DNA from: an uncultured Thermotogae bacterium
GTDB taxonomy: Bacteria; Bipolaricaulota; Bipolaricaulia; UBA7950; UBA9294
Length of the DNA stretch: 36,957 nucleotides
Assembly: GCA_964635895.1 (NCBI GenBank)
Contig: CAZWQN010000004.1
Coordinates: 1 to 36,957 of the forward strand
Direction: 5' to 3'
Shown here one piece after another: positions 14,447 through 35,555 of the stretch. Under the pieces are notes generated by a model that saw nothing but the letters and a program-made list of their open reading frames with translations, did not search any database and was not told where the DNA came from. The position numbers and the translations under genes were made by a program. Position 1 is the first letter of the stretch, and each line of letters begins with the position of its first letter.

Positions 14447-17400
14447 CTAACGGTCGATGAACACGGTGCCCTTGGCGGACGGCGTGTTGGCCGGGGTGAA
14501 GGTGTTCGTCCCGTCCGTCGCCGTTATGACGTAGAGGTACGGGCCGTTCGCCAACGCTTCGCCATCGTCGCTCATACCGTCCCACACGACGTTCGTCGCG
14601 TCTACCTGTGTGGTCGCCCATACGAGGTGGCCGTTGAGATCGTAGATCAGAACAGAGAACTGCGTCGCGACCCCAGAGCCCTCGTACGCAAACGTCACGC
14701 TCCCGGGGAACGGGTTGGGCGCTGCGTAGAACTGCGTCACCAAGAGCGCGCCCGCCACGATCACCACCGTGTCCGAACTTGTGTCGGTCGGGTCCGTCGG
14801 GTCGGTGTACGTCGCTGTCAGCACGTCGCCGACCGCCACGTCGAGTTCGAGTGGATCGGTGACGAACATGTGGCTCTGGCTTCCGTACGTCGTCAGGTCG
14901 TACGCGACGCCGTCGATGGTGACGGCGTCGGACAAGGAGACGTCCAGCGCGTGCGAAACATCGGTGACTCGAACGCGGATGCAATCCCCCGGCGTGTAGC
15001 TGGTGACCTCGTTCCCCGCAGAGTCGATGAACGCCGTCGACGAGCCTGGAGTGGTCGGGGCGCCTCCGCCGACCGAGGTCTTGATCGCGATCATCGCCGC
15101 GTCGGAGTGGTTCGACGGATCCTGGTAGAAGGCGACGATCGTGTCGCCCGGAAGGACGTCGAGCGTTGGCACACACGGGTAGACCGCAGTCAGATCGACG
15201 CAGATGACGGACATGAACGTCCCGCTGCCTACCCGCGTTTCGAGCAGGTCGAGGGCCGCCCAACGGCCGCTGCGCGGGTTCAAGACGTAGACCCTCGGCG
15301 CTCCGTCATAGGCGTCGTTCGGGTACGGATTGGGCGAGTCGTTGAAGATGTTCGTGTCGCCGAGCAGCGCGTTGACGGGGTGCGTGTTGACGCGGTCCGG
15401 GATGCAATCGAACTCGTTCAGCGGCAACGGGCCAAACGGGAGGTTCTGCCCCCCGTCCCAGAACCCGGCCACGCGCTCCCGGCGGAACAGGTCCTCGTTC
15501 TGATCGTCGTCCGTGACCTCGAGGAACACGCAGTCCGAGTTCACGTAGCCGGTGACGGCGTTTCCGTTGCGATCGAGGAAGCGCATCCTTGTCGTGGTGC
15601 CGTCGTAGACCTGCGTGTCGGCAATCGACATCAGGTCGAACGAGACATCGTTCGACGCGCGAATCCGATCGATGCGCGGACCCGAGTACGCCGTGTACGT
15701 GTCCTCGTCGCCGAGCCCGAACATCCCTTGGTCGTTGTTCACGTAGTAGACGTCGTTGTAGCGGACGTAGACGTCATCTTCATTGAACACCTCGAGCTTC
15801 CAGTTGTCGAGGACGAGCTGATAGCCCCCGAGGAGGCCGGCCAGGCCGACGCCGAGCGCGTCCCACACCGGGAGAAGCTGCATTCCCGCGCTCGAGAAGA
15901 AGGTGGACGAGTTCGACGATGTCTCGTCGAGAATCCAGAACTCACCGTCGTCCTCATCGTGCGGGTCGCAAAGATGGACGACGACCTGCTCTGGGCAGCA
16001 CGGGTCGGCGTTGGCATTCTCGTCGATCACCTGAACGTAGATCGCATCGCGGCCGATCCAGTAGACGTCTCGGTCTTGGCGGGACGCGTCGGTGAAGCTC
16101 GTCGCCGAGTGCTGCCGCTCCCCGATGTACGCGGTCGCCAGCTTGAAGTCGTCCTCGTCGTTCGGATCGAGGTAGTAGGCGACGAGCACGTCGCGCACGT
16201 TCAGGCTCAAGAACCCGAGGTCTACGAGGATCGAGTTCAGCCTGAGCTCGAACACGCCGGTGTTCGTCCCGGTTTCTCGGGCGTAGAACGAAACGGCCGT
16301 GACTCCGTTTGCGCTCACCGTGTCGAATAGCGATCCGTGATACTCGAGATCGAACACCCCGCGCTTCGGATACTGGATGTAGTAGCGGCCGTCTTTCGCG
16401 CCCTTGCTCCCGTAGTCGTTCTTCTCCGCGTTGTAGATGTTGAACCACCGAATCGGCCGGTTCGACAGGTCGCCGCTTGTGCCATCCGGCATCACCGCGC
16501 GGTCGGTCGTCCCGATGTAGCTTCCGTCGACTCCGCCGGTACGCTTCAGCATGCAGAAGTTGGTGGCATTGTCGCCGGTAGTGCTCGTCGCGACGTCCTC
16601 TGAGTTCGTCGGATTCCACGACCCGGGGTTCACGATGATGAACACGGGAACGACTTCGACCCGGTTGCAGTTTAGGTTCTCGTCCGGGTCCACGATCGTG
16701 ATCGTCGCGGCCTCGTTCCCATCCTTGTAGACGACTCCGTTGCCCTTCGAGCTTCCACCTTCCCAGGTGATGGTTGCTTCCGTGTCGATGATCTTCATCA
16801 TCTCGACGGCGACGTCAGTCTCGTCGTTCTGATCCTGGACCATGCCGATGAGCGTGTCCATGTTCTCGAACCGCCCGATCAGCCAGTAGTCCACCAGGTC
16901 GGTCGTTCTCGCGGAGTCGAGTTCAGAGGGCAGCACGCCGGCCCAGAGAGGGAGGAACGCGAGATCCCTCATCACGAGCCCCGACTTGAACGCCACGGAG
17001 TTGAATGGCTGAAAACCGACCCAACAGAGGACGTCCCCGTGCGTGATGTCCCCGGGCTTCGTGTCGGTGAACAGGGCGACGTGGGAGTAGGCGCCCCACT
17101 TGAACGAGCGCGGTTCTGCGACGAGTGGTTTGGCGACAATGTGGTTGTTCCCGGCCACCGCACCTCCGGTCGGCAGATCCACGACGTGGGTCCCTTTCCA
17201 CGGCTCGCTCGAGGCGAAGCTCTCGCGCGTGCCGATCTGGAACGGCCGCTTGCTCACGAAGATCCCCGTGTCGGCGCCGGTCTCCTCGAAGTAGTCCCCG
17301 GCGAGCGACCCGGGGTTCCCGGGGTAGTGGCCCTTATAGGGAACGGAGGTGACATGATTGTTCTGGTTGGCGTTAAGCGGGTGCGCTGCCTTGAAGCCAA

Positions 17401-17671
17401 TCGTCTCGCGGTTGCTCGTCCAGACGATGGACGCGCCGGTCTTCGGGTCCATCAGCTTGACGTCGGTCCAGATCTTGTCCCGCACGTCGCAGTCGATGTT
17501 CTCATCCGGGTCGTACAGGCAGATCCAGACCTCGGTTCCTTCCTGGACATTCGTCACGCGGGTCGCGCCGCCCTTGTCGGACGAGAAGTACATCTCGGCC
17601 GTGGACGCCCCCAGCGGGAGCGCCGCGACGATCAAGGCAACGCCCATCAATCCTAGGCACTTCCGTATCAT
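14447..17671 (-). CDS. large secreted repeat protein with a C-terminal FlgD-Ig / T9SS-type sorting-like domain
   Basis: Signal peptide MIRKCLGLMGVALIVAALPLGAS. Recurrent beta-strand plus acidic motifs: LYDPDENIDCDV, IVDPDENLNCNRVEV, VIDENANADP, LEVTDDDQNEDL, YLDPNDEDD, YTDPTDPTD. The C-terminus AAPNPFPGSVTFAY..VLIYDLNGHLVW..VWDG..NGPYLYVI is typical of FlgD-Ig/Por-secretion tails. Confidence 0.85.
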   Translation of the reverse strand: MIRKCLGLMGVALIVAALPLGASTAEMYFSSDKGGATRVTNVQEGTEVWICLYDPDENIDCDVRDKIWTDVKLMDPKTGASIVWTSNRETIGFKAAHPLNANQNNHVTSVPYKGHYPGNPGSLAGDYFEETGADTGIFVSKRPFQIGTRESFASSEPWKGTHVVDLPTGGAVAGNNHIVAKPLVAEPRSFKWGAYSHVALFTDTKPGDITHGDVLCWVGFQPFNSVAFKSGLVMRDLAFLPLWAGVLPSELDSARTTDLVDYWLIGRFENMDTLIGMVQDQNDETDVAVEMMKIIDTEATITWEGGSSKGNGVVYKDGNEAATITIVDPDENLNCNRVEVVPVFIIVNPGSWNPTNSEDVATSTTGDNATNFCMLKRTGGVDGSYIGTTDRAVMPDGTSGDLSNRPIRWFNIYNAEKNDYGSKGAKDGRYYIQYPKRGVFDLEYHGSLFDTVSANGVTAVSFYARETGTNTGVFELRLNSILVDLGFLSLNVRDVLVAYYLDPNDEDDFKLATAYIGERQHSATSFTDASRQDRDVYWIGRDAIYVQVIDENANADPCCPEQVVVHLCDPHDEDDGEFWILDETSSNSSTFFSSAGMQLLPVWDALGVGLAGLLGGYQLVLDNWKLEVFNEDDVYVRYNDVYYVNNDQGMFGLGDEDTYTAYSGPRIDRIRASNDVSFDLMSIADTQVYDGTTTRMRFLDRNGNAVTGYVNSDCVFLEVTDDDQNEDLFRRERVAGFWDGGQNLPFGPLPLNEFDCIPDRVNTHPVNALLGDTNIFNDSPNPYPNDAYDGAPRVYVLNPRSGRWAALDLLETRVGSGTFMSVICVDLTAVYPCVPTLDVLPGDTIVAFYQDPSNHSDAAMIAIKTSVGGGAPTTPGSSTAFIDSAGNEVTSYTPGDCIRVRVTDVSHALDVSLSDAVTIDGVAYDLTTYGSQSHMFVTDPLELDVAVGDVLTATYTDPTDPTDTSSDTVVIVAGALLVTQFYAAPNPFPGSVTFAYEGSGVATQFSVLIYDLNGHLVWATTQVDATNVVWDGMSDDGEALANGPYLYVITATDGTNTFTPANTPSAKGTVFIDR

Positions 17672-26644: not shown

Positions 26645-27082
26645 CTACACCTCCGACGTGCAGTGAGGACACCGCGTGGCGGCGAGCGGGATCTGCGTCC
26701 GGCAGCGCGGGCACTCCTTCGTCGTCGGCGCCGCCGTCTCGGCCTTCTTCTGCATTCGGCTGAACACGCGGACAAGGAGGAACATGACCCACGCGACGAT
26801 CAGGAATGTGATCAAGGTGTTGATGAATGCGCCGTAGTAGATCGCCGCAGCGCCCGCCTCACGCGCGGCGGCCGCGGACTCATACGTTTCACCGGACAGG
26901 ACAACGTAGAGGTTCGCGAAGTCTACGTTCCCGATCAGCTTGCCGATGATGGGCATGATGAGATCATCGACGAACGACTTCACCATGGTCGCGAACGCCG
27001 CGCCCATGACGAAGGCGATGGCCAACTGAAGCAGGTTCCCCTTGGTGATGAACTCCCTGAACTCCTTTCGCACCTCGGTCAC
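26645..27082 (-). CDS. mscL: large-conductance mechanosensitive channel MscL with a C-terminal zinc-ribbon extension
   Basis: FREFITKGNLLQLAIAFVMGAAF..DLIMPIIG..INTLITFLIVAWVMFLLV matches the canonical MscL layout. The tail reads KECPRCRTQIPLAATRCPHCTSEV (CxxC-x10-CxxC). Confidence 0.85.
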   Translation of the reverse strand: MTEVRKEFREFITKGNLLQLAIAFVMGAAFATMVKSFVDDLIMPIIGKLIGNVDFANLYVVLSGETYESAAAAREAGAAAIYYGAFINTLITFLIVAWVMFLLVRVFSRMQKKAETAAPTTKECPRCRTQIPLAATRCPHCTSEV

Positions 27083-27545: not shown

Positions 27546-27980
27546 ATGGCCACGTTGGATGAAGTGGCGCGCTTCCTCGGGCTCTCGAAGCGCGCTGTGC
27601 GGTTGAGGGTCGACGCTCTCGGCGAAACCCTCCAGAGGTATCTCACTCGAGGAGAGCGAAACCGGCTGATCTTCCGTGGGGAAGCCGTGGCCATCCTGCG
27701 CCGTCTCGAGGAGTTGCGTCGAGAAGAGGGGCTTCCGATCCGCCAGGCGGCCGATCGGCTGCGGGGCGAGTTGGGCGACGACGAGACCACGTCCGGGATC
27801 TGTATCGTCCTTCGCCCCGAGGTGGAGTTCGCTCTCGCTCACGAGCTGCTGCAGGAGGCGACTCGCGAGCGCGACCAGTGGCGGGAGTACGCAACAGCCC
27901 TCCAGTCGGTTCTTCCTCCCGAGCTCAAGTGGCTGAACTCCGTCTCGCCGGCGACGTCCGGCGACCGGCGGATGAACTAG
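27546..27980 (+). CDS. HTH DNA-binding protein (MerR/excisionase-like), hypothetical
   Basis: MATLDEVARFLGLSKRAVRLRVDALG is an HTH-like N-terminus, followed by a coiled-coil-like remainder. 144-aa ORF. Confidence 0.55.
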   Translation: MATLDEVARFLGLSKRAVRLRVDALGETLQRYLTRGERNRLIFRGEAVAILRRLEELRREEGLPIRQAADRLRGELGDDETTSGICIVLRPEVEFALAHELLQEATRERDQWREYATALQSVLPPELKWLNSVSPATSGDRRMN

Positions 27981-28008: not shown

Positions 28009-31000
28009 CTACTCGCCCTCCGGATCGGGGAGGTCTTCCCGAGATAGGAACCGAGGGAGAATCCGTCCCTGCGCCCCGAGTGGCAGGCGGTCCCCGGGCT
28101 TCGCATCCGCCCACGTTCCCTCCGCCCCCGCGCCTCTTGGCAGGTTCACCAGAGCAATCGGCGTTCCTGGAGGAAGCGTCCCCGGGTCGCTCTCCGCGAG
28201 GGCCATTCCGACCTGAAGCCCTCCCAGACTCACGCAGCTCGTCACTCGGCCGAGAACTGCTCCGTTCCTGTCGAGCACGAGTGCCCCGTCGCGCACGGGG
28301 CGGGCTCCCTCGTCGACCTGGAAACGGACGATCGATCGCTTCGCTCCGTCCGTGTAGAGCCGCCGGCACGTCGAGCGGCCGACGAAGAACGCCTTGTGGA
28401 GCTTGATGTACGACCCGAAGCCGGCCTCGTACGGGTTCACTCCATGGGGCCCTGCCAGTTCGTGTCCGTACAGCGGGAGTCCGGCCTCTGTTCGGGTCGA
28501 GTCTCGTGACGCCAACCCGCACGGCAGGAGGCCGAGCGGCCGACCGGCGTCAAGCAGGCGGCTCCACAGCCATGCGGCGTCGGGAGCGGCGGAGTAGATC
28601 TCGTAGCCCGTGGGCTCCCCCGTGTAGCCCGTTCGGGCCACCAGGAGCTGGTGCCCCTCCGCGACAACCTCGGCGAACTGTGTCCGGTCGAGCGACGCGA
28701 TCGCTCGGCGCTCCTGCGGTGCCAGGACGAGGTTGAGGATTTGGTGGCTCCTCGGTCCCTGAAGGGCCACGTCGACGACGCCGCGCTCCTTCTTGAGGTC
28801 GCGGATCGTGACCTGCGGGCCGGGGCGGCAAGACGGGTGGTCGCGGTCGATGAGGTAGGTCCCTGCATTGACGCCGCACAGCCAGTCCCAGTCCTTCTGC
28901 TCGTTGGCGGCGTTCACCACGACGAGGAATCGGTTTCTTGCCCGGCGGTACACCATGATGTCGTCGATCACCCCTCCGTCGGGGTCGAACAGGTAGGCGT
29001 ACTGCGATTGCCCGATCTCGAGCCATCCCGCGTAGTTCGACGAGACCGCATTGAGGAAGTCCACGGCGTGCTCGCCCTCCACTTGGAACACGCCCATGTG
29101 CCCGAGATCGAACAGGCCGGCGGCCTTGCGCACGGCCGCGTGTTCTTCAAGCGCCGACGTGTACCAGACGGGCATTTCCCAGCCGGCGAACGCCACGAGC
29201 CTCGCCCCGAGGGCCGCGTGGGCGTCATAGAGAGGCGTCCTTCGCAGGGGTTCTTGGGCCGGCGCCCACCGGAACTCCGCTGGGGGTGCGGCGGGAACCG
29301 GCGCCGGGAGGCGATCCCTGCCGACGAAGTACGGTTTCTCCGGCGCAAAGCGATCCGGATGCCTGGAGAAGATCTCGCGGATGTCCTTGCCCGCGGCATC
29401 TTCGCCCGGCGCGGCCGGCTTCCATGCCCGGGCCGCCGGGGGCAAAGCGCTCGTTGCCGCCTCCTCGATGACGGCGGGTCCCTGAACCTTCCGCAGGACG
29501 TCCACCGGGTCGAAGAGCGCGTAGCCGTCGGCCAGCCCGGTCAGCCATTCCCTGACGGCGCGTGCGTTCTCTGCCGGCGCGTAGAGGAGGTAGTCGTCGC
29601 GGCCGAGCGACCCGGCGATCACGTTCGACACGGCTTGTCCGTTCTCGTCGAACAAGTACGCATGGGCCGCCGCTCCGGAGGGGAGGGCGAACAGGTCGAC
29701 CGTCAGGCTCTCTTGCAGGAGGGCGCCGGCGCGGCCGCCGCGGATCCGAATCGCACACCATGTTCCGTCGTTCGTCGCCGGGCGAGCGTCTCTCGGCGCA
29801 CCTCCCACCCGAGGGTCGACCCGGCCGATGAGTTCTCTCACGTCGCGTTTCGCCGCCTCGAGCACGGGCAGCGGGACCTTCCCCCGCGAGGACTCGCCGC
29901 GCAGCCCGCAGTACGAGAAAGGGCGGATGGCCTTTAGAACATCGGCGATGATCTTGGCTAGGGCTCGCATGTCCCCCTCGCCCATTCCGCGTTGCGTCAC
30001 CCATGGCGTTCCGAGGCGGATCCCGTGGGCATCCGCCGCGCTGCGATCGCCGGGGAGGGTGTTCTTGTTGCAGACGATCCCGGCGAGGTCCAGGATGCGC
30101 GCCGCGATCTCCCCCATCATCACGAACCCGGTGCCGCTCGGGAGCGGCTTCAGGTCAACGAGGAGAAGGTGGGTGTCGGTTCCTCCGTAGGCGAGAGTGA
30201 GTCCGTGGGCCTCGAGCGCCTTGGCCAGAGCCTTCGCGTTCTCGACGATGCGGCGCTGCAGCGCCGCGAACTCCGGCTGCTGGGCCAGTTTGAGAGCCAC
30301 GGCCAGAGCGGCGAACTTGTTCACGTGGGGTCCGCCCTGCTGGCCGGGGAAGATCGACGAGTCGAGCTTCGCGGCGATGGCCGGGTCGGTGGACAGGAGC
30401 ACCGCGCCCCGTCCACCACACAGGGTCTTATGGGTCGTGAACGACACCACGTGGGCGTGGTCGATCGGGTTCGGGTAGACCCCTCCGACGATCAGGCCGG
30501 CCGTGTGGGCGACATCGGCGAGCAGAATGGCCCCGACCGCGTCGGCGATTTCGCGGAACTTCCTCCAATCAGCCTGCCACGGGTACGACGTGAATCCGCC
30601 GATGATCATCCGCGGTCGATGCTCCTCGGCGAGACGACGGATCTGGTCGTAGTCCAGCTTTCCTGTCGCCGGATCCACCGCGTACGAGACGATCCGGTAG
30701 CGGCGGCCCGTGACGTTGAACTCGGATCCGTGGGTGAGGTGGCCGCCCTCGGTGAGGGCCATGCCCATCACCGTTTCTCCCGGCGCGACGAACGCCTCGT
30801 ACACGGCCAGATTTGCGGCGGCGCCGGAGAGCGCCTGGACGTTCACGTAGATCCTTTCAGCGGGAACGTCGGGAGTCGCGAAGCACTCCGCGGCGCGTCG
30901 GGCGGCGAGCGACTCGACAAGGTCCGCGATCTCCACGCCTTTGTAGAAGCGGCGGTCGGCGTAGCGTCGATAGTTCGCGAGTTGCAGGTCGATGTCCGCG

Positions 31001-31221
31001 AGCTGCTCGACGGTTCCTCTCATCATCGCCTTGCGGGGATACCCCTCGGCGTACACGCTCGTGAACGCCGAGCCGAGGGCCTCTCGAACCGAGGCGGGCG
31101 TCAAGGACTCGGACGGGATCAAGATGATCTTCTCCCGTTGGCGACGCTCCTCGGCGGCGATGAGCGCCGCCGTCTGAGCGTCCACGTCAAGCACGCGCTG
31201 GTTGAGTTGAGATGGGCTCAT
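28009..31221 (-). CDS. fusion protein: serine hydroxymethyltransferase (N-terminal ~440 aa), a partial GcvT-like module, and a full aminomethyltransferase (glycine-cleavage T protein, C-terminal ~410 aa)
   Basis: SHMT blocks: LIPSESL, VYAEGYP, NVQALSGAAAN, GGHLTHGS and VVSFTTHKTLCGGRGA, with the PLP Lys codon at 30427-30429. GcvT blocks: RTPLYDAHAALGARLVAFAGWEMPVWY, GLFDLGHMGVFQVEG, YAYLFDPDGGVIDDIMVY, LVARTGYTGEPGYEI-like, ASRDSTRTEAGLPLYGHEL. It is one uninterrupted 1070-codon frame. AGGAG lies five nt before the ATG at 31221. Confidence 0.85.
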   Translation of the reverse strand: MSPSQLNQRVLDVDAQTAALIAAEERRQREKIILIPSESLTPASVREALGSAFTSVYAEGYPRKAMMRGTVEQLADIDLQLANYRRYADRRFYKGVEIADLVESLAARRAAECFATPDVPAERIYVNVQALSGAAANLAVYEAFVAPGETVMGMALTEGGHLTHGSEFNVTGRRYRIVSYAVDPATGKLDYDQIRRLAEEHRPRMIIGGFTSYPWQADWRKFREIADAVGAILLADVAHTAGLIVGGVYPNPIDHAHVVSFTTHKTLCGGRGAVLLSTDPAIAAKLDSSIFPGQQGGPHVNKFAALAVALKLAQQPEFAALQRRIVENAKALAKALEAHGLTLAYGGTDTHLLLVDLKPLPSGTGFVMMGEIAARILDLAGIVCNKNTLPGDRSAADAHGIRLGTPWVTQRGMGEGDMRALAKIIADVLKAIRPFSYCGLRGESSRGKVPLPVLEAAKRDVRELIGRVDPRVGGAPRDARPATNDGTWCAIRIRGGRAGALLQESLTVDLFALPSGAAAHAYLFDENGQAVSNVIAGSLGRDDYLLYAPAENARAVREWLTGLADGYALFDPVDVLRKVQGPAVIEEAATSALPPAARAWKPAAPGEDAAGKDIREIFSRHPDRFAPEKPYFVGRDRLPAPVPAAPPAEFRWAPAQEPLRRTPLYDAHAALGARLVAFAGWEMPVWYTSALEEHAAVRKAAGLFDLGHMGVFQVEGEHAVDFLNAVSSNYAGWLEIGQSQYAYLFDPDGGVIDDIMVYRRARNRFLVVVNAANEQKDWDWLCGVNAGTYLIDRDHPSCRPGPQVTIRDLKKERGVVDVALQGPRSHQILNLVLAPQERRAIASLDRTQFAEVVAEGHQLLVARTGYTGEPTGYEIYSAAPDAAWLWSRLLDAGRPLGLLPCGLASRDSTRTEAGLPLYGHELAGPHGVNPYEAGFGSYIKLHKAFFVGRSTCRRLYTDGAKRSIVRFQVDEGARPVRDGALVLDRNGAVLGRVTSCVSLGGLQVGMALAESDPGTLPPGTPIALVNLPRGAGAEGTWADAKPGDRLPLGAQGRILPRFLSREDLPDPEGE

Positions 31222-32357
31222 GGTCGCTCCTTTTCACCGCCGAACGGATCCGGGTGAAGTCTACGGACTACGTTTCGCGCTTTCCAGCAGGCTTCTGCCG
31301 CGAGGTAGAGCCCTCCGCTGACGAGGCTGTGCCCGCCGAGGACGACGGGGACGCGGCACTGGATCGCCGCCTCGGTGAAGCTCCGCCAGACGGGGTCGTC
31401 GACTTCATCGAGCAGGAAGAGGTCGCTCGCGAAGCGCTCCTTCGGCGGAGGCAGGACGCCGCCGAAGGAAAGGAGCGGTCGCGTGTCGATCCATGCGGCG
31501 TCGGCGGCCTCCTCGAGGCGGTGGAAGAACCGCTCCGCTCCGTCCTCGAGGAGTGTCCGCCGCACCCAAGGTATGTGGCGGGACGCCGACGCGCGCATCC
31601 CGCGGCCCTCCACGAGGGCACTCGTCCGACAGGCGACTTCTTGCTCGAAGTGGCTCCACGTCGTCGGGTTCACGCGTCCGACAAGCATCGTCGACGCCGA
31701 GCGGTCGGCGAGCACGGCCAGCGCCCGGTCTATGGACGGATGACTCCATGGGCGGCCCTCGAGGAAGCGGCGAAGCCCTGCGTGTCCGCGGTCGGTGCGC
31801 GCGAGCAGGTGAACGTCGGACGGCGTATCGATGTCGAACTGCGTCGACGCCGAGCGGGGCATCGACAGGCAGCGAATCCCGGCGTCGGAAAGGGCGAACC
31901 CGAGCGGATTATCTGCGGCGGGGAGGTTCAGTTTGACCAGGCGCTTCGCATCGGTGAAGGCGGCGAAGTCGCAGGAGTAGAAGTTGTTGAAGACGGCCGA
32001 CCCTGAGCTGGCCTGAGCAAACACGATCAGACTGCGGATCTCCTCGTCCGAAAGGAGGCCGCCGCTTCCGCTGCCGAAGTACAGGAGGCCCTCGACATCG
32101 AGGTCGAGGATCAAGCGCTGAAGCGCGCGCCCAAAGTGAAAGGACGCCTCCTCGGCGTCCGGCGAGGTGCGCACTTTCGCGTCAAAGGCCCCTTCTTGAA
32201 CCACCTCCGCGGTCGTCACGACGATCGGATCGAGGCCGCACGCGTTCAGGCGGGAGCATAGATCTCGGGTCGACGCCCGCCGGGCTTCCTCTACGATGCG
32301 TTCGCCGGGACTCACGCCGACCGGAGCGTGGAACACAAGAGCCGTGACGCGTCTCAT
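31218..32357 (-). CDS. hypothetical protein; the N-terminal half weakly resembles a MobA/CofC/DUF2064-type (GT-A-like) nucleotidyltransferase fold
   Basis: ATG 32357 has GGAGGT three nt upstream and overlaps the helicase TGA (ATGA). Its own TGA overlaps the fusion ATG (ATGA at 31218-31221). Motifs LLYFGSGSGGLLSDEEI and FDIDTPSDV recall NTP-transferase-fold proteins. The C-terminal ~170 aa are unassigned. Confidence 0.65.
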   Translation of the reverse strand: MRRVTALVFHAPVGVSPGERIVEEARRASTRDLCSRLNACGLDPIVVTTAEVVQEGAFDAKVRTSPDAEEASFHFGRALQRLILDLDVEGLLYFGSGSGGLLSDEEIRSLIVFAQASSGSAVFNNFYSCDFAAFTDAKRLVKLNLPAADNPLGFALSDAGIRCLSMPRSASTQFDIDTPSDVHLLARTDRGHAGLRRFLEGRPWSHPSIDRALAVLADRSASTMLVGRVNPTTWSHFEQEVACRTSALVEGRGMRASASRHIPWVRRTLLEDGAERFFHRLEEAADAAWIDTRPLLSFGGVLPPPKERFASDLFLLDEVDDPVWRSFTEAAIQCRVPVVLGGHSLVSGGLYLAAEACWKARNVVRRLHPDPFGGEKERP

Positions 32358-34576
32358 CGGACCTCCCCTCGGTTCGCATCGGCCAACAGGGCAAGGATGC
32401 GCATCGCCCCCGACTTCGACAACGGCTGGTTCTGGCTCCCACAGCGGGGGGAGAGCAGGCACGCCGGGCACCCTGCCTCGCACGGACACCGCGAGACCAT
32501 ATCGTGCGCGGCCGCCGCGAGGCGAGACCATTCCTCGAACAGCACCTCCGCCAAGCCGGCGCCGTCTTCGATGGCGTCGAAGAGAAGGACCGTCGGCGCC
32601 CCGATCTGGGGATGGAGAGGCATGGATGCGCCGGCGATATCGGCGGCGTCGCACAAGACGAGAAGCGGAGCCATCGAGATCAGCGCGTGTTCGGCTCCGT
32701 GCAGGGCTCCCAGGAGATCGACTGCGGCGGTTTCCGGCGGGAGGTCCCGAAACGCTGCCCACAGCCCGTCGCTCTCGTAGGTGTGTGGCGGAAGCGCGAG
32801 CGGATGGAGCGACACGCTACGATCGTTGTGGACTGACGTGTAACCGACGAACGACTCGGTCACGCGAACCCGGCCGTACGCGACCTGCGCTGTTCCCGAG
32901 AGGACCGCTGGCTCCGCGCTGACGATCTCGACCGTGCTGGCTCGGAGCCCCTGCGTCGAGTAGTCGACATCCTCGCGGGCTGCAGTCGCCACTCCCTCTT
33001 CCAGGTCGAGCGCATGGACGACGTACGTCTCTCCGCGGTGGAGGAGAACGGCGCCCGGATAGGCGTCGCGGCGCGCACGAACCGGATCCATCGTCTCGAT
33101 CGTTCGTCCGTCACACACCAGCCGCACGGTCTCGCCGGCCATCTCTTCGAGGGGGAACGCTTCGTGAGCGCGGCGCAGCCCGCGGTAGATGTATCCGGAC
33201 GGTGTGCCGGCCAGAAGTCGGCCGTCGCGCAGCGTCTCCACCGCCTCCCTGTCCGACTCGTCGATCTCATTCTCCCCAAGGGGAAGCTCGGCCGCGGCAC
33301 AGGCAAGGTGCCCCGCGCGTTGACGGAGCGTTCGGCGCGGCAGCACCAGCCGCTCGCCGGTGTGGGCGAGGAAGCGCTCCGGATCGCGCAGGAAGTACCG
33401 ATCGAGGGGGTCTTCGTACGGGATGTACACGATTAACGAGGGTCGGGAGCCCCGCCCCGCGCGGCCCGCCTGCTGCCATGCGGAGAGAAGGCTTCCTGGA
33501 AACCCGACAAGAATCGCCGCGTCGAGTCCGCCGATGTCGATGCCCGACTCGAGAGCCGACGTCGAAACGACGCCACGCAAGCGACCCTCGCGGAGGTCGG
33601 CCTCAAGCGCTCTTCGAGCTTCCGGGAGGTAGCCGGCACGGTAGGCCTGAATCGTCTCCGTCGCGGACATCTTCCGCGCCAGGCTCGCCACTCGCTCTGC
33701 CATGACGCGCGATCGTGCGAAGCAGATTGTCTGCGCCCCCTGTTCCGTGAGGAACGAGAGCAGCGTCGCCGCTTGACGAGTCGTCGACGAGGTCGGATCA
33801 GCCAGCGGATCCCAGAACACGACGCTCCGCGGTCCCCGCGCGGACGCATCGTGGTCGACCGGGATCGCGTCCCGTCCCGTGAGGGAACGGGCGAACTCGC
33901 CGGGGTTTGCGATCGAGGCCGACGAGACGATGAACCGCGGGTGGGCGCCGTAATGCTCGAGGATGCGCGACAAGCGGGACAGAAGCTGCGCGACGTTCCC
34001 GCCCATCACGCCTCGGTAGTGGTGAGCTTCGTCGAGTACAACAAGCTTGAGGTTGGCGAAGATGCGGGCCCATTGGCTGTGCCAGGGAAGGTACTGGTGA
34101 AGCGCGTGGGGGTTTGTCAGGATGACGCGGGCGGAGCGCCGGATCCAGGCCTTCTTCTGCGGCGGCGTGTCGCCGTCGTACGTGCTAGGCCGAAGGTCCG
34201 TGCCGCACGCCTCATCGAGGGCGCGGAGCTTTTCCAGCTGGTCGTTGGCCAGTGCCTTGAGTGGGTAGAGGTAGAGGGCCGTCGCACTCGGATCCTCGCT
34301 CAGCCATTCGAGGGTGGGAACTTGGAAGGCGAGGGTCTTTCCCGATGCCGTGGCGGTCGTAAGGACGACGTCACGCCCCGCGCGCAACGCTTCGATCGCT
34401 TCGACCTGATGCCGATAGAGGCGCACTCCGCGCTCGTGGAGCGTTGCCGCCAGCTCCGGGCGCAGCGTGACGTCTCGATACGCCGGCGCGTGAGCCGGGA
34501 GGGAGGCTGCATGGACGACCTGACCCCGGTAGCGGGGATCTTGATCCAACGCGGTCAGAAACGCATCAAGTCGCAT
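32354..34576 (-). CDS. DEAH-box helicase with a C-terminal DUF1998-type four-Cys module (MrfA/YprA-like)
   Basis: LTTATASGKT (Walker A), VVLDEAHHYRG (DEAH), SSASIANP, a helicase C-domain (..GIDIGGLDAAILVGFPGS..QQAGRAGR), and the C-terminal SRCPCEAGCPACLLSPRCG. ATG 34576 has GAGGGGG upstream. The track ORF start at 34867 is an upstream extension. Confidence 0.85.
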   Translation of the reverse strand: MRLDAFLTALDQDPRYRGQVVHAASLPAHAPAYRDVTLRPELAATLHERGVRLYRHQVEAIEALRAGRDVVLTTATASGKTLAFQVPTLEWLSEDPSATALYLYPLKALANDQLEKLRALDEACGTDLRPSTYDGDTPPQKKAWIRRSARVILTNPHALHQYLPWHSQWARIFANLKLVVLDEAHHYRGVMGGNVAQLLSRLSRILEHYGAHPRFIVSSASIANPGEFARSLTGRDAIPVDHDASARGPRSVVFWDPLADPTSSTTRQAATLLSFLTEQGAQTICFARSRVMAERVASLARKMSATETIQAYRAGYLPEARRALEADLREGRLRGVVSTSALESGIDIGGLDAAILVGFPGSLLSAWQQAGRAGRGSRPSLIVYIPYEDPLDRYFLRDPERFLAHTGERLVLPRRTLRQRAGHLACAAAELPLGENEIDESDREAVETLRDGRLLAGTPSGYIYRGLRRAHEAFPLEEMAGETVRLVCDGRTIETMDPVRARRDAYPGAVLLHRGETYVVHALDLEEGVATAAREDVDYSTQGLRASTVEIVSAEPAVLSGTAQVAYGRVRVTESFVGYTSVHNDRSVSLHPLALPPHTYESDGLWAAFRDLPPETAAVDLLGALHGAEHALISMAPLLVLCDAADIAGASMPLHPQIGAPTVLLFDAIEDGAGLAEVLFEEWSRLAAAAHDMVSRCPCEAGCPACLLSPRCGSQNQPLSKSGAMRILALLADANRGEVR

Positions 34577-35555
34577 CGGGCCCCCTCGGCAGCAGGGCGC
34601 GGAGAAGCCGCGCGAGGTTGACGACATCCTGCCGGTTGTGGTCAAGGATCGGTCGGAGGGGCGCTGGGCTTCCAGTCTCCAGGTACATCGAGTAGAACTG
34701 CGGGACGAGCGAGCCCGGCAGGTCGCTCGCGCGGCGAACACCGAGCACCTTCTCTTCGACGGTTCCGAGGTGAGCGTCCGGAAGAACACCCGCGAATTGC
34801 CGGCGGACGTGGTGGAGAAGGTCTGCGTGGATCCCGACCGGCGGGAGATTCCTCCCGTAGTAGGCACATCGTTGTCGCAGGAGGCTCCAGTCGAACGCCT
34901 TCCCGTTGTACGACACGAGGGCGGTGGCTCCCTTGAGCTCGCGGGTGAAGCGCGCGAGAAGGGCGTCTTCCCCGGCGAGCGACGGCGCGAGGAACTGACG
35001 AACGGTCAGGGTGCGGTCCCCGAGCCGTGCTGTCGCGATCAGAAAGATGGGGGCGTTCGACAGCCCCAGCGTCTCGAGGTCGAAGAAGAGAACGCGCTCG
35101 CGCGGAACGAATCCCAGAGCGGCGAGGAGTCGTGGGTCTGAAGCAGGCAGCCACGTTTCGAGAGTGGCGAGGACGGCCTCGACGTCCCACGCTGTGCCCC
35201 ACTCGGCGAGAAGCGCGCGTGCGCTCTCTCCCCATCGCGGGTGAGCGGCGAGGTCGGCGAGCGTCTCGTAGCCCTGTTGGCGGAGCTGTTCCCGGCGGCA
35301 CGTTCCGATGCCGTACAGCAGATCGAGCATGCGCTCCACGCTCGCACGAAGGTGGTCCATCGGTGGGAAGCGGAGCTCGAAGGACTCCTCGGACTCGAAC
35401 GTAAGAACGTCGTGGAATCCATGTTCTCGAGTTCCGGAATCGAAGAGCGCGTCGGTCGTCTCGTCCAGCGAACCGGGAAGGCCTGCGGTCTCCTGGGCGG
35501 GTTCTCTGGGAGTCGCTCGGCCGGCGAGCCATCCTGCAAGCCGGTCGTTCCTCAT
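34566..35555 (-). CDS. RNase-H-fold (DEDD-type) exonuclease, YprB/MrfB-like, with an N-terminal HhH-like segment
   Basis: LFFDLETLGL (D-x-E), SYNGKAFDWSLL, HADLLH and HNRQDVVNL. The HhH-like segment is LLYGIGTCRREQLRQQGYETLADLA. The stop overlaps the helicase start by 11 nt. Confidence 0.75.
   Translation of the reverse strand: MRNDRLAGWLAGRATPREPAQETAGLPGSLDETTDALFDSGTREHGFHDVLTFESEESFELRFPPMDHLRASVERMLDLLYGIGTCRREQLRQQGYETLADLAAHPRWGESARALLAEWGTAWDVEAVLATLETWLPASDPRLLAALGFVPRERVLFFDLETLGLSNAPIFLIATARLGDRTLTVRQFLAPSLAGEDALLARFTRELKGATALVSYNGKAFDWSLLRQRCAYYGRNLPPVGIHADLLHHVRRQFAGVLPDAHLGTVEEKVLGVRRASDLPGSLVPQFYSMYLETGSPAPLRPILDHNRQDVVNLARLLRALLPRGPDAT

Follow-up and report, generated by a model that had tools for sequence, protein, structure and literature searches.

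A fusion of predicted serine hydroxymethyltransferase and glycine cleavage T-protein modules in Bipolaricaulota and Chloroflexota

Modules of the fusion protein

We analyzed a stretch of 36,957 nucleotides (the window) from an uncultured bacterium deposited as Thermotogae and placed by GTDB in the Bipolaricaulota (GenBank assembly GCA_964635895.1, contig CAZWQN010000004.1, positions 1 to 36,957). A single gene on the minus strand (28009..31221) encodes a polypeptide of 1070 amino acids (aa) in which a serine hydroxymethyltransferase (SHMT) module is followed by a truncated copy of a T-protein, here called T', and by a complete glycine cleavage T-protein (aminomethyltransferase, GcvT). The coding sequence is one open reading frame (ORF) of 1070 codons plus stop, free of internal stop codons, and it was recovered in three assemblies and in more than 120 homologues. 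The junction between the SHMT and T parts (29250-29950) is covered by Logan contigs of three separate runs, each from a different sample (X1, X2 and X3; 20-32x), which span most or all of the ORF with at most one mismatch each and zero indels or joints. The original prediction, made from the sequence alone, had placed an SHMT, a partial GcvT and a complete GcvT in one open frame and had singled out this junction as the place to look for a mis-join or a missed stop. The frame is indeed uninterrupted, and three independent assemblies agree that neither error is present. Metatranscriptome contigs with 98-99% identity map onto the gene; they are short and of low depth, with DNA carry-over possible, and constitute weak evidence that the gene is expressed. 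One metatranscriptome contig, from a related strain, spans the junction between the fusion and the gene directly upstream.

The SHMT module (aa 1-431; 29929..31221, minus strand) belongs to the fold-type I enzymes that depend on pyridoxal 5'-phosphate (PLP). It scored 434 bits against the NCBIfam model NF000586 (curated cut-off 335) and 399 bits against PF00464 (cut-off 27; E 2e-119). Its sequence identity to solved bacterial SHMTs is 41-43%, and its modelled fold matches these with a TM-score (TMt) of 0.88-0.90, which bears out the expectation that the N-terminal part is an SHMT-fold PLP enzyme. Catalytic positions were aligned against the Thermus SHMT (2DKJ), and residues are here and below called invariant on the basis of an alignment (A1) of 39 fusions from two phyla. 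The PLP-binding lysine was located, as predicted, in the motif FTTHKTL, where it is K265 (codon 30427..30429, minus strand) within the invariant series T262-T263-H264-K265-T266. Also invariant are S37, Y57, E59, Y93, H161, D236, H239, H264, R271, R402 and N385/N387; we take the E. coli counterparts to be S35, Y55, E57, Y65, H126, D200, H203, H228, K229 (for K265), R235, R363 and N347, the latter being the folate Asn of the NKN motif.

Two canonical SHMT motifs are altered in the fusion, LIASEN to LIPSES, as seen already in the original prediction, and PHSGSQAN to ALSGAAAN. The insertion then estimated at ~25 aa measures ~27 aa against 2DKJ (aa 63-90; 30952..31035, minus strand; query 63-91 against target 57-59) and lies between AEGYP and RFYKG in the active-site/dimer-interface loop. 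It was observed in 39/39 aligned fusions, with L74, R85, R86, Y87, D89 and R91 invariant. The same insertion was found in the stand-alone SHMTs P0195, P0204 and P0214, and it is therefore a feature of the lineage and not a by-product of the fusion. A C-terminal extension (aa 432-473; 29803..29928, minus strand) follows, modelled as a beta-hairpin (strands 433-438 and 443-449) and a helix (451-468), and contains the invariant residues P434, Y437, R446 and K448. The SHMT part aligns to position 483 of the 496 positions of NF010094, a model of PRK13580-type glycine hydroxymethyltransferases. Its score of 320.5 bits is below the cut-off of 735, and membership in this family was rejected; the three stand-alone SHMTs were likewise below this cut-off. 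In one Anaerolineae fusion (L061), the linker loop between the large and small SHMT domains carries a repetitive insertion, GGDRKGGDRKGGD, at A1 columns 399-425.

The T' module (aa 486-590; 29452..29766, minus strand) was identified by profile-profile comparison with hhalign, in which aa 470-655 of the family matched the T module of the same proteins with a probability of 99.2% (E 1.2e-19), aa 486-590 corresponding to aa 707-811. When excised, the middle segment also matched positions 50-128 of the Pfam GCV_T profile (~aa 518-596 of the fusion). T' has not kept the positions that hold the catalytic Asp (IDD) and the NAAN motif in the real T module, and it is therefore judged from its sequence to be catalytically dead. 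In longer relatives of 1228-1339 aa (P0149, P0133 and P0123), T' is almost entire and extends over T positions 2-314, from which it follows that the ancestral architecture was SHMT-T'-T and that the 1070-aa form in the window has an internally deleted T'. Thus, the original reading of the ~100 middle residues as GcvT-like was correct, whereas their description as a folate-binding half has to be replaced by that of a whole T-protein copy that has degenerated and undergone an internal deletion.

The connector (aa 591-655; 29257..29451, minus strand) between T' and T contains the motif KPYFVG (aa 629-634; 29320-29337), in which K629 and Y631 are near-invariant and F632 and G634 invariant. A second, weaker hhalign alignment (probability 80%) paired the connector segment KPYFVG(R/Q) with the motif HKxFFVGR at the opening of the C-terminal barrel in the T module. 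Across the two phyla, the residues W559, G566, Y567, F570, D574, K578, G581, P582, F632 and G634 of T' and connector are invariant. Both elements are ordered in the model calculated with AlphaFold2 (AF2), with predicted local distance difference test scores (pLDDT) of ~85-94 for the two together (T' ~90; connector 72-92).

The T module (aa 656-1070; 28012..29256, minus strand) includes a predicted C-terminal barrel and represents a complete T-protein, in agreement with the original prediction. It scored above the cut-offs of both the gcvT equivalog model TIGR00528 (263.9 bits; cut-off 235.85) and the subfamily model NF001567 (317.5 bits; cut-off 300), and aa 659-1016 matched positions 1-253 of the 255 positions of Pfam GCV_T. 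The match to B. subtilis GcvT (1YX2) had an E of 3e-68, with a TMt of 0.90 and a root-mean-square deviation of 3.0. The motifs HMG, IDD (catalytic pair D753/D754; 28960-28965, minus strand), NAxN (N770/N773), GYTGE (G865-E869) and RDSxRxE (R906-D907), which were aligned to 1YX2, 1WOO and 1VLO, are invariant. Scores against the models of trimethylamine N-oxide (TMAO) demethylase (Tdm), SoxA, DmdA and LigM were far under their cut-offs.

For the whole chain, AF2 gave a pLDDT of 82.6 and a predicted template modelling score (pTM) of 0.78, and the two halves matched solved SHMT and GcvT structures at a TMt of ~0.9. In this monomer model, confidence was low only at the SHMT insertion and at loops 53-63, 84-98, 165-171 and 292-297, which are dimer-interface loops in real SHMTs.

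Distribution and genomic context

More than 120 homologues of 1053-1077 aa with 64-96% identity, all with both PF00464 and PF01571, were retrieved from NCBI, JGI, ENA and Logan. An exhaustive HMMER search of representatives at 50% identity yielded ~65-70 clusters with a length of at least 1000 aa and an alignment extending through both halves. When prokaryotic genomes were scanned, with each species represented by one genome, at least 575 confirmed relatives were obtained. The best 80 of these relatives are all fusions, some of them clipped at contig ends, and they come mainly from Bipolaricaulota and Chloroflexota. Loci at 59-84% identity are Bipolaricaulota, several of which were deposited as 'Thermotogae' or 'Atribacteria', and Chloroflexota (Anaerolineae and Thermoflexia) make up most of the loci at 47-54% identity, beside individual bins labelled Fraserbacteria, Myxococcota, Spirochaetes and Pirellulales.

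In the window, the fusion closes a run of minus-strand genes that begins with SSB and continues with an exonuclease (RNase_H_2), a helicase (DEAD/MZB) and an orphan of 379 aa. Helicase and orphan, and likewise orphan and fusion, overlap in an ATGA, and a purine run resembling a Shine-Dalgarno sequence lies ahead of both junctions. In a relative with 70% identity (L002), the exonuclease and helicase genes are missing from this place and the orphan directly follows rpsR, so that the conserved unit is the orphan plus the fusion. The orphan ('p378'; 31218..32357, minus strand), which is predicted to be co-transcribed with the fusion and coupled to it in translation, is located directly upstream of the fusion in all Bipolaricaulota-type loci with upstream sequence and in the Fraserbacteria locus L039, and 0.1-1.1 kb upstream in the Anaerolineae loci L054, L057 and L062.

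No Pfam or NCBIfam family and no meaningful sequence-profile match in the PDB was found for the orphan. Pfam CofC/NTP_transf_3 was not above noise, a CofC match being obtained in 1/26 relatives (E 0.13), and the ~500 clusters of orphan homologues are all annotated 'hypothetical protein'. The AF2 model of the orphan (pLDDT 87, pTM 0.87) places a CofC/FbiD-like domain before a C-terminal alpha/beta domain. Its N-terminal ~200 aa matched the CofC/FbiD guanylyltransferases 2I5E, 6BWG and 7P97 in Foldseek with a probability of 1.0, a TMt of 0.63-0.69 and 15-18% identity, the best being 2I5E (E 6.5e-8, TMt 0.69). Based on this model, we assign a nucleotidyltransferase (MobA-like) fold to the orphan. 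Conserved motifs are FHFG, LLYFGSGSGGLL, NNFYSCDF and TQFDIDTPTD, the conserved FDIDTPTD part of which contains a DxD, in resemblance to CofC/FbiD. We presume that D129, D174 and D176 are candidates for the metal-binding Asp triad of FbiD. Unlike in CofC/FbiD, an N-terminal Lys-rich NTP motif is not evident, a further C-terminal domain of ~170 aa is present, and the genomic partner is a glycine/serine enzyme instead of F420 genes. The tight linkage to the fusion across phyla, once within a glycine-riboswitch operon, suggests that the orphan acts in the same process as the fusion.

The link to glycine cleavage was observed in the Anaerolineae relatives. The operon order is fusion-gcvH-gcvPA-gcvPB at loci L054, L058 and L062, and gcvPA-gcvPB-fusion at L055, with all gcvH, gcvPA and gcvPB partners above NCBIfam cut-offs. 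At L054, a glycine riboswitch (RF00504, 66 bits) is located ahead of orphan-fusion-gcvH-gcvPA-gcvPB, and the fusion thus occupies the exact position that is usually taken by gcvT. Neither a glycine riboswitch nor any other Rfam family was found in the window, so that glycine-riboswitch control is not established for its organism.

Several other features of the window and of related loci were observed. The RNase_H_2-superfamily exonuclease (34566-35555, minus strand) and the DEAD/Helicase_C/MZB helicase (32354-~34576, minus strand) resemble the MrfB/MrfA DNA-repair pair; they are inserted after rpsF-ssb-rpsR and before the orphan-fusion unit, with translational coupling to the latter. An ORF of 144 aa (27546-27980, plus strand) converges on the fusion gene, and 20 Bipolaricaulota loci have it conserved in this place; neither Pfam nor NCBIfam gave a match for it, and its N-terminus looks helix-turn-helix-like by eye. 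An MscL mechanosensitive channel (26645-27082, minus strand) has an additional C-terminal zinc-ribbon (UPF0547, 30 bits). An ORF of 1074 aa (14447-17671, minus strand) has an unusually low GC content at first codon positions (0.58) and a high GC content at third positions (0.87), with matches confined to a C-terminal FlgD_ig/CHU_C domain of the type used for sorting by the type IX secretion system, and its product is probably a large protein that is secreted or located at the cell surface. In two related Bipolaricaulota loci (L001, 3738-4356; L002, 7024-7483), short genes encoding 44-46 aa without a Pfam match stand in tandem arrays of three to four upstream of rpsF and adjoin genes for an HD-domain protein and DUF5317. 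These may represent a small-peptide array.

Proposed function and alternative explanations

The identities of the domains, the conservation of their catalytic residues, the integrity of the gene, the conservation of the architecture and the operon linkage to gcvH and gcvP in relatives are all established. From these sequence features, we consider it probable that the fusion is a bifunctional SHMT/T-protein for glycine-serine interconversion. The N-terminal module would catalyze the PLP-dependent reaction Ser + THF <-> Gly + 5,10-CH2-THF (THF, tetrahydrofolate; 5,10-CH2-THF, 5,10-methylene-THF), and the C-terminal module the reaction aminomethyl-dihydrolipoyl-GcvH + THF <-> dihydrolipoyl-GcvH + 5,10-CH2-THF + NH3, for which it would depend on GcvH. 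The two would be joined by T' as the ordered remnant of a second, dead T-protein copy, and the partners of the fusion would be GcvH, GcvPA/PB and Lpd, all encoded separately. Since both sites handle the same THF/5,10-CH2-THF pair, the fusion would fix their stoichiometry at 1:1 and set the production of CH2-THF beside its consumption. For the same reason, the enzyme would lend itself to the overall conversion 2 Gly + NAD+ <-> Ser + CO2 + NH3 + NADH, which is that of plant mitochondria and is reversible. Bacterial SHMT is an obligate dimer, and a core of two SHMT modules with two T'-T arms may therefore be expected. For the Anaerolineae relative, control by a glycine riboswitch suggests that the reaction runs in the direction that consumes glycine.

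Each half of the protein resembles a well-characterized enzyme. With bacterial GlyA (T. thermophilus 2DKJ, G. stearothermophilus 1KKJ and E. coli 1DFO), the fusion has in common the fold, the PLP Lys of TTHKT, the catalytic residues and the folate Asn. It differs from GlyA in the conserved 27-aa insertion after AEGYP, the SES motif, the C-terminal hairpin-helix and the appended T' and T modules. With GcvT/AMT (B. subtilis 1YX2, T. maritima 1WOO, E. coli 1VLO/3A8I), the T module shares the Asp, Asn and Arg motifs and, in relatives, the operon position beside gcvH and gcvPA/PB behind a glycine riboswitch. Unlike in GcvT/AMT, its N-terminus is not free and runs on from the connector (KPYFVG...F.W), an insertion of ~15 aa is found around aa 785-805, and the C-terminal barrel is divergent. 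In plant mitochondria, where glycine decarboxylase and SHMT act together, and in the reductive glycine pathway, one CH2-THF/THF pool serves the conversion 2 Gly <-> Ser + CO2 + NH3. The reaction pair is the same, but T-protein and SHMT are separate proteins there and covalently fused here.

Hao et al. 2018 give a gene table for the closed genome of Ca. Bipolaricaulis anaerobius (supplementary file 3; PMC6092417), in which EC 2.1.2.10 and EC 2.1.2.1 are both assigned to a single gene, BARAN1_v2_0410 'glyA/gcvT', while gcvH/gcvPA/gcvPB are found elsewhere, at 0562-0564, and lpd at 0087. Because the fusion takes the gcvT slot in the operons of relatives and because this table gives a single glyA/gcvT gene, the fusion most likely represents, as judged from sequence, the ordinary SHMT and T-protein of the organism.

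Some observations weigh against the proposed bifunctional role. The active-site loop of the SHMT module bears the 27-aa insertion, and SEN is changed to SES. The C-terminal barrel scored 18-21 bits against PF08669 (GCV_T_C), below the cut-off of 25.9; beta strands were modelled at 963-1055, and the alignment with 1YX2 spans 409 columns. In E. coli, the free N-terminus of the T-protein is reported to be important for binding of the H-protein, and in the fusion it is buried within the chain. A phmmer search of the six-frame translation with GcvH, GcvPA and GcvPB detected no gcvH or gcvP in the window, as the original prediction had stated. Finally, the identity of BARAN1_v2_0410 as a homologue of the fusion is deduced from its double annotation in the table rather than from a sequence comparison.

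How closely the two sites would cooperate can be explained in several ways. A direct hand-over of folate between the SHMT and T sites (channelling) is plausible, although we hold it only tentatively. The original prediction had raised channelling or a run in the reductive-glycine direction, both of them reasonable proposals; the gcvT slot in relatives and the glyA/gcvT gene table speak for the identity of the enzyme, not for channelling or a direction. A serious alternative, to which we give somewhat less than an even chance, is that both modules are active but that the fusion only secures co-expression and stoichiometry (a 'Rosetta stone' fusion), with CH2-THF equilibrating with the bulk pool and T' being a spacer left from a decayed duplication. 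T' lacks the catalytic Asp and is internally deleted relative to the long relatives, as a decaying domain would be, and stand-alone insertion-type SHMTs and T'-T or T proteins occur among the representatives, some of which may be contig fragments. Against a passive spacer speaks that T' and connector retain invariant residues across two phyla and are modelled as ordered and packed in a whole chain with a pTM of 0.78, both of which would be unexpected. A far-reaching proposal, which we regard as unlikely, is that SHMT-T'-T acts together with its translationally coupled CofC-fold partner as a machine devoted to glycine<->serine interconversion. Folate in (poly)glutamylated form would stay bound and swing between the T and SHMT sites, T' and the SHMT insertion would dock GcvH or hold the folate tail, and the 379-aa protein would be a new accessory factor of glycine cleavage that, for example, modifies or loads a cofactor or the H-protein.

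Explanations in which one of the modules has another function, or in which the fusion does not exist, were ranked lower than a bifunctional SHMT/T-protein. Dimethylglycine oxidase/dehydrogenase, sarcosine oxidase alpha and TMAO demethylase likewise combine a reaction that releases a one-carbon (C1) unit and a GcvT-fold THF site in one polypeptide; their GcvT-like domain makes no use of H-protein, and an internal tunnel is known in these enzymes. By analogy, the T module could work without H-protein and trap a C1 unit (formaldehyde or iminium) from the adjacent domain onto THF. To our knowledge, all natural fusions that bear a GcvT-like domain act as such traps, and sub-threshold matches to the Tdm, SoxA and DmdA models and to the dimethylglycine oxidase and dehydrogenase structures point the same way. 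However, the partner in those fusions is a flavoprotein or DUF1989, itself unable to use THF, whereas SHMT is a THF enzyme that moves C1 units to THF itself and has kept its folate-binding residues here. Moreover, the T module resembles true GcvT: it passed the gcvT equivalog model but not Tdm, SoxA or DmdA, its nearest solved relative is a genuine GcvT, and in relatives it takes the place of gcvT in gcvH-gcvP operons behind a glycine riboswitch. We therefore consider a C1 trap improbable.

A drift of the SHMT-like module to another PLP-dependent aldolase or transaldolase, for example a THF-independent threonine or alpha-methylserine aldolase, so that it would not be the SHMT of the cell, appears very improbable. 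It could account for the odd insertion, situated in a loop that lines the active site of the neighbouring subunit, for the SES and ALSGAAAN motifs and for a sub-threshold match to fluorothreonine transaldolase. Yet the module exceeded the SHMT subfamily cut-off, all mappable catalytic and folate-contact residues are invariant, and the Ca. B. anaerobius gene table credits the SHMT reaction to the glyA/gcvT gene (PMC6092417). The chance that the long ORF is an artefact, with separate glyA and gcvT genes united by a mis-assembled junction or a missed frameshift, is negligible. The sole ground for it is the prior expectation that metagenome bins hold such errors, and it is contradicted by the three assemblies, which concur across the junction without an indel, and by hundreds of full-length homologues from varied sources with equal length and module order.

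Implications for one-carbon metabolism

A full-text search of the literature retrieved no paper in which the SHMT-T'-T fusion is described or tested. Its domain architecture is new and combines enzymes of known kinds, both of which are textbook examples. The fusion is already visible in databases and is tabulated as 'glyA/gcvT' in the supplement of one paper (PMC6092417). Two conserved elements stand out around it, T' and the CofC-fold partner, and these may be new parts of the system. Annotation pipelines name the fusion after one half only, and metabolic reconstructions can therefore list gcvT or glyA as absent in error.

One-carbon metabolism has its two central points of entry and exit in SHMT and the glycine cleavage system, and the two also form the core of the reductive glycine pathway, which is being engineered for the assimilation of formate and CO2. 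The fusion could provide a compact part for synthetic C1 pathways. The channelling of CH2-THF between SHMT and glycine cleavage has long been debated for plant mitochondria, and a natural SHMT-T fusion in hundreds of uncultured anaerobes offers a test case for it. The fusion is widespread in two anaerobic phyla and appears to be their working SHMT and T-protein; in the lineage of the window, it is probably the sole enzyme of either kind.

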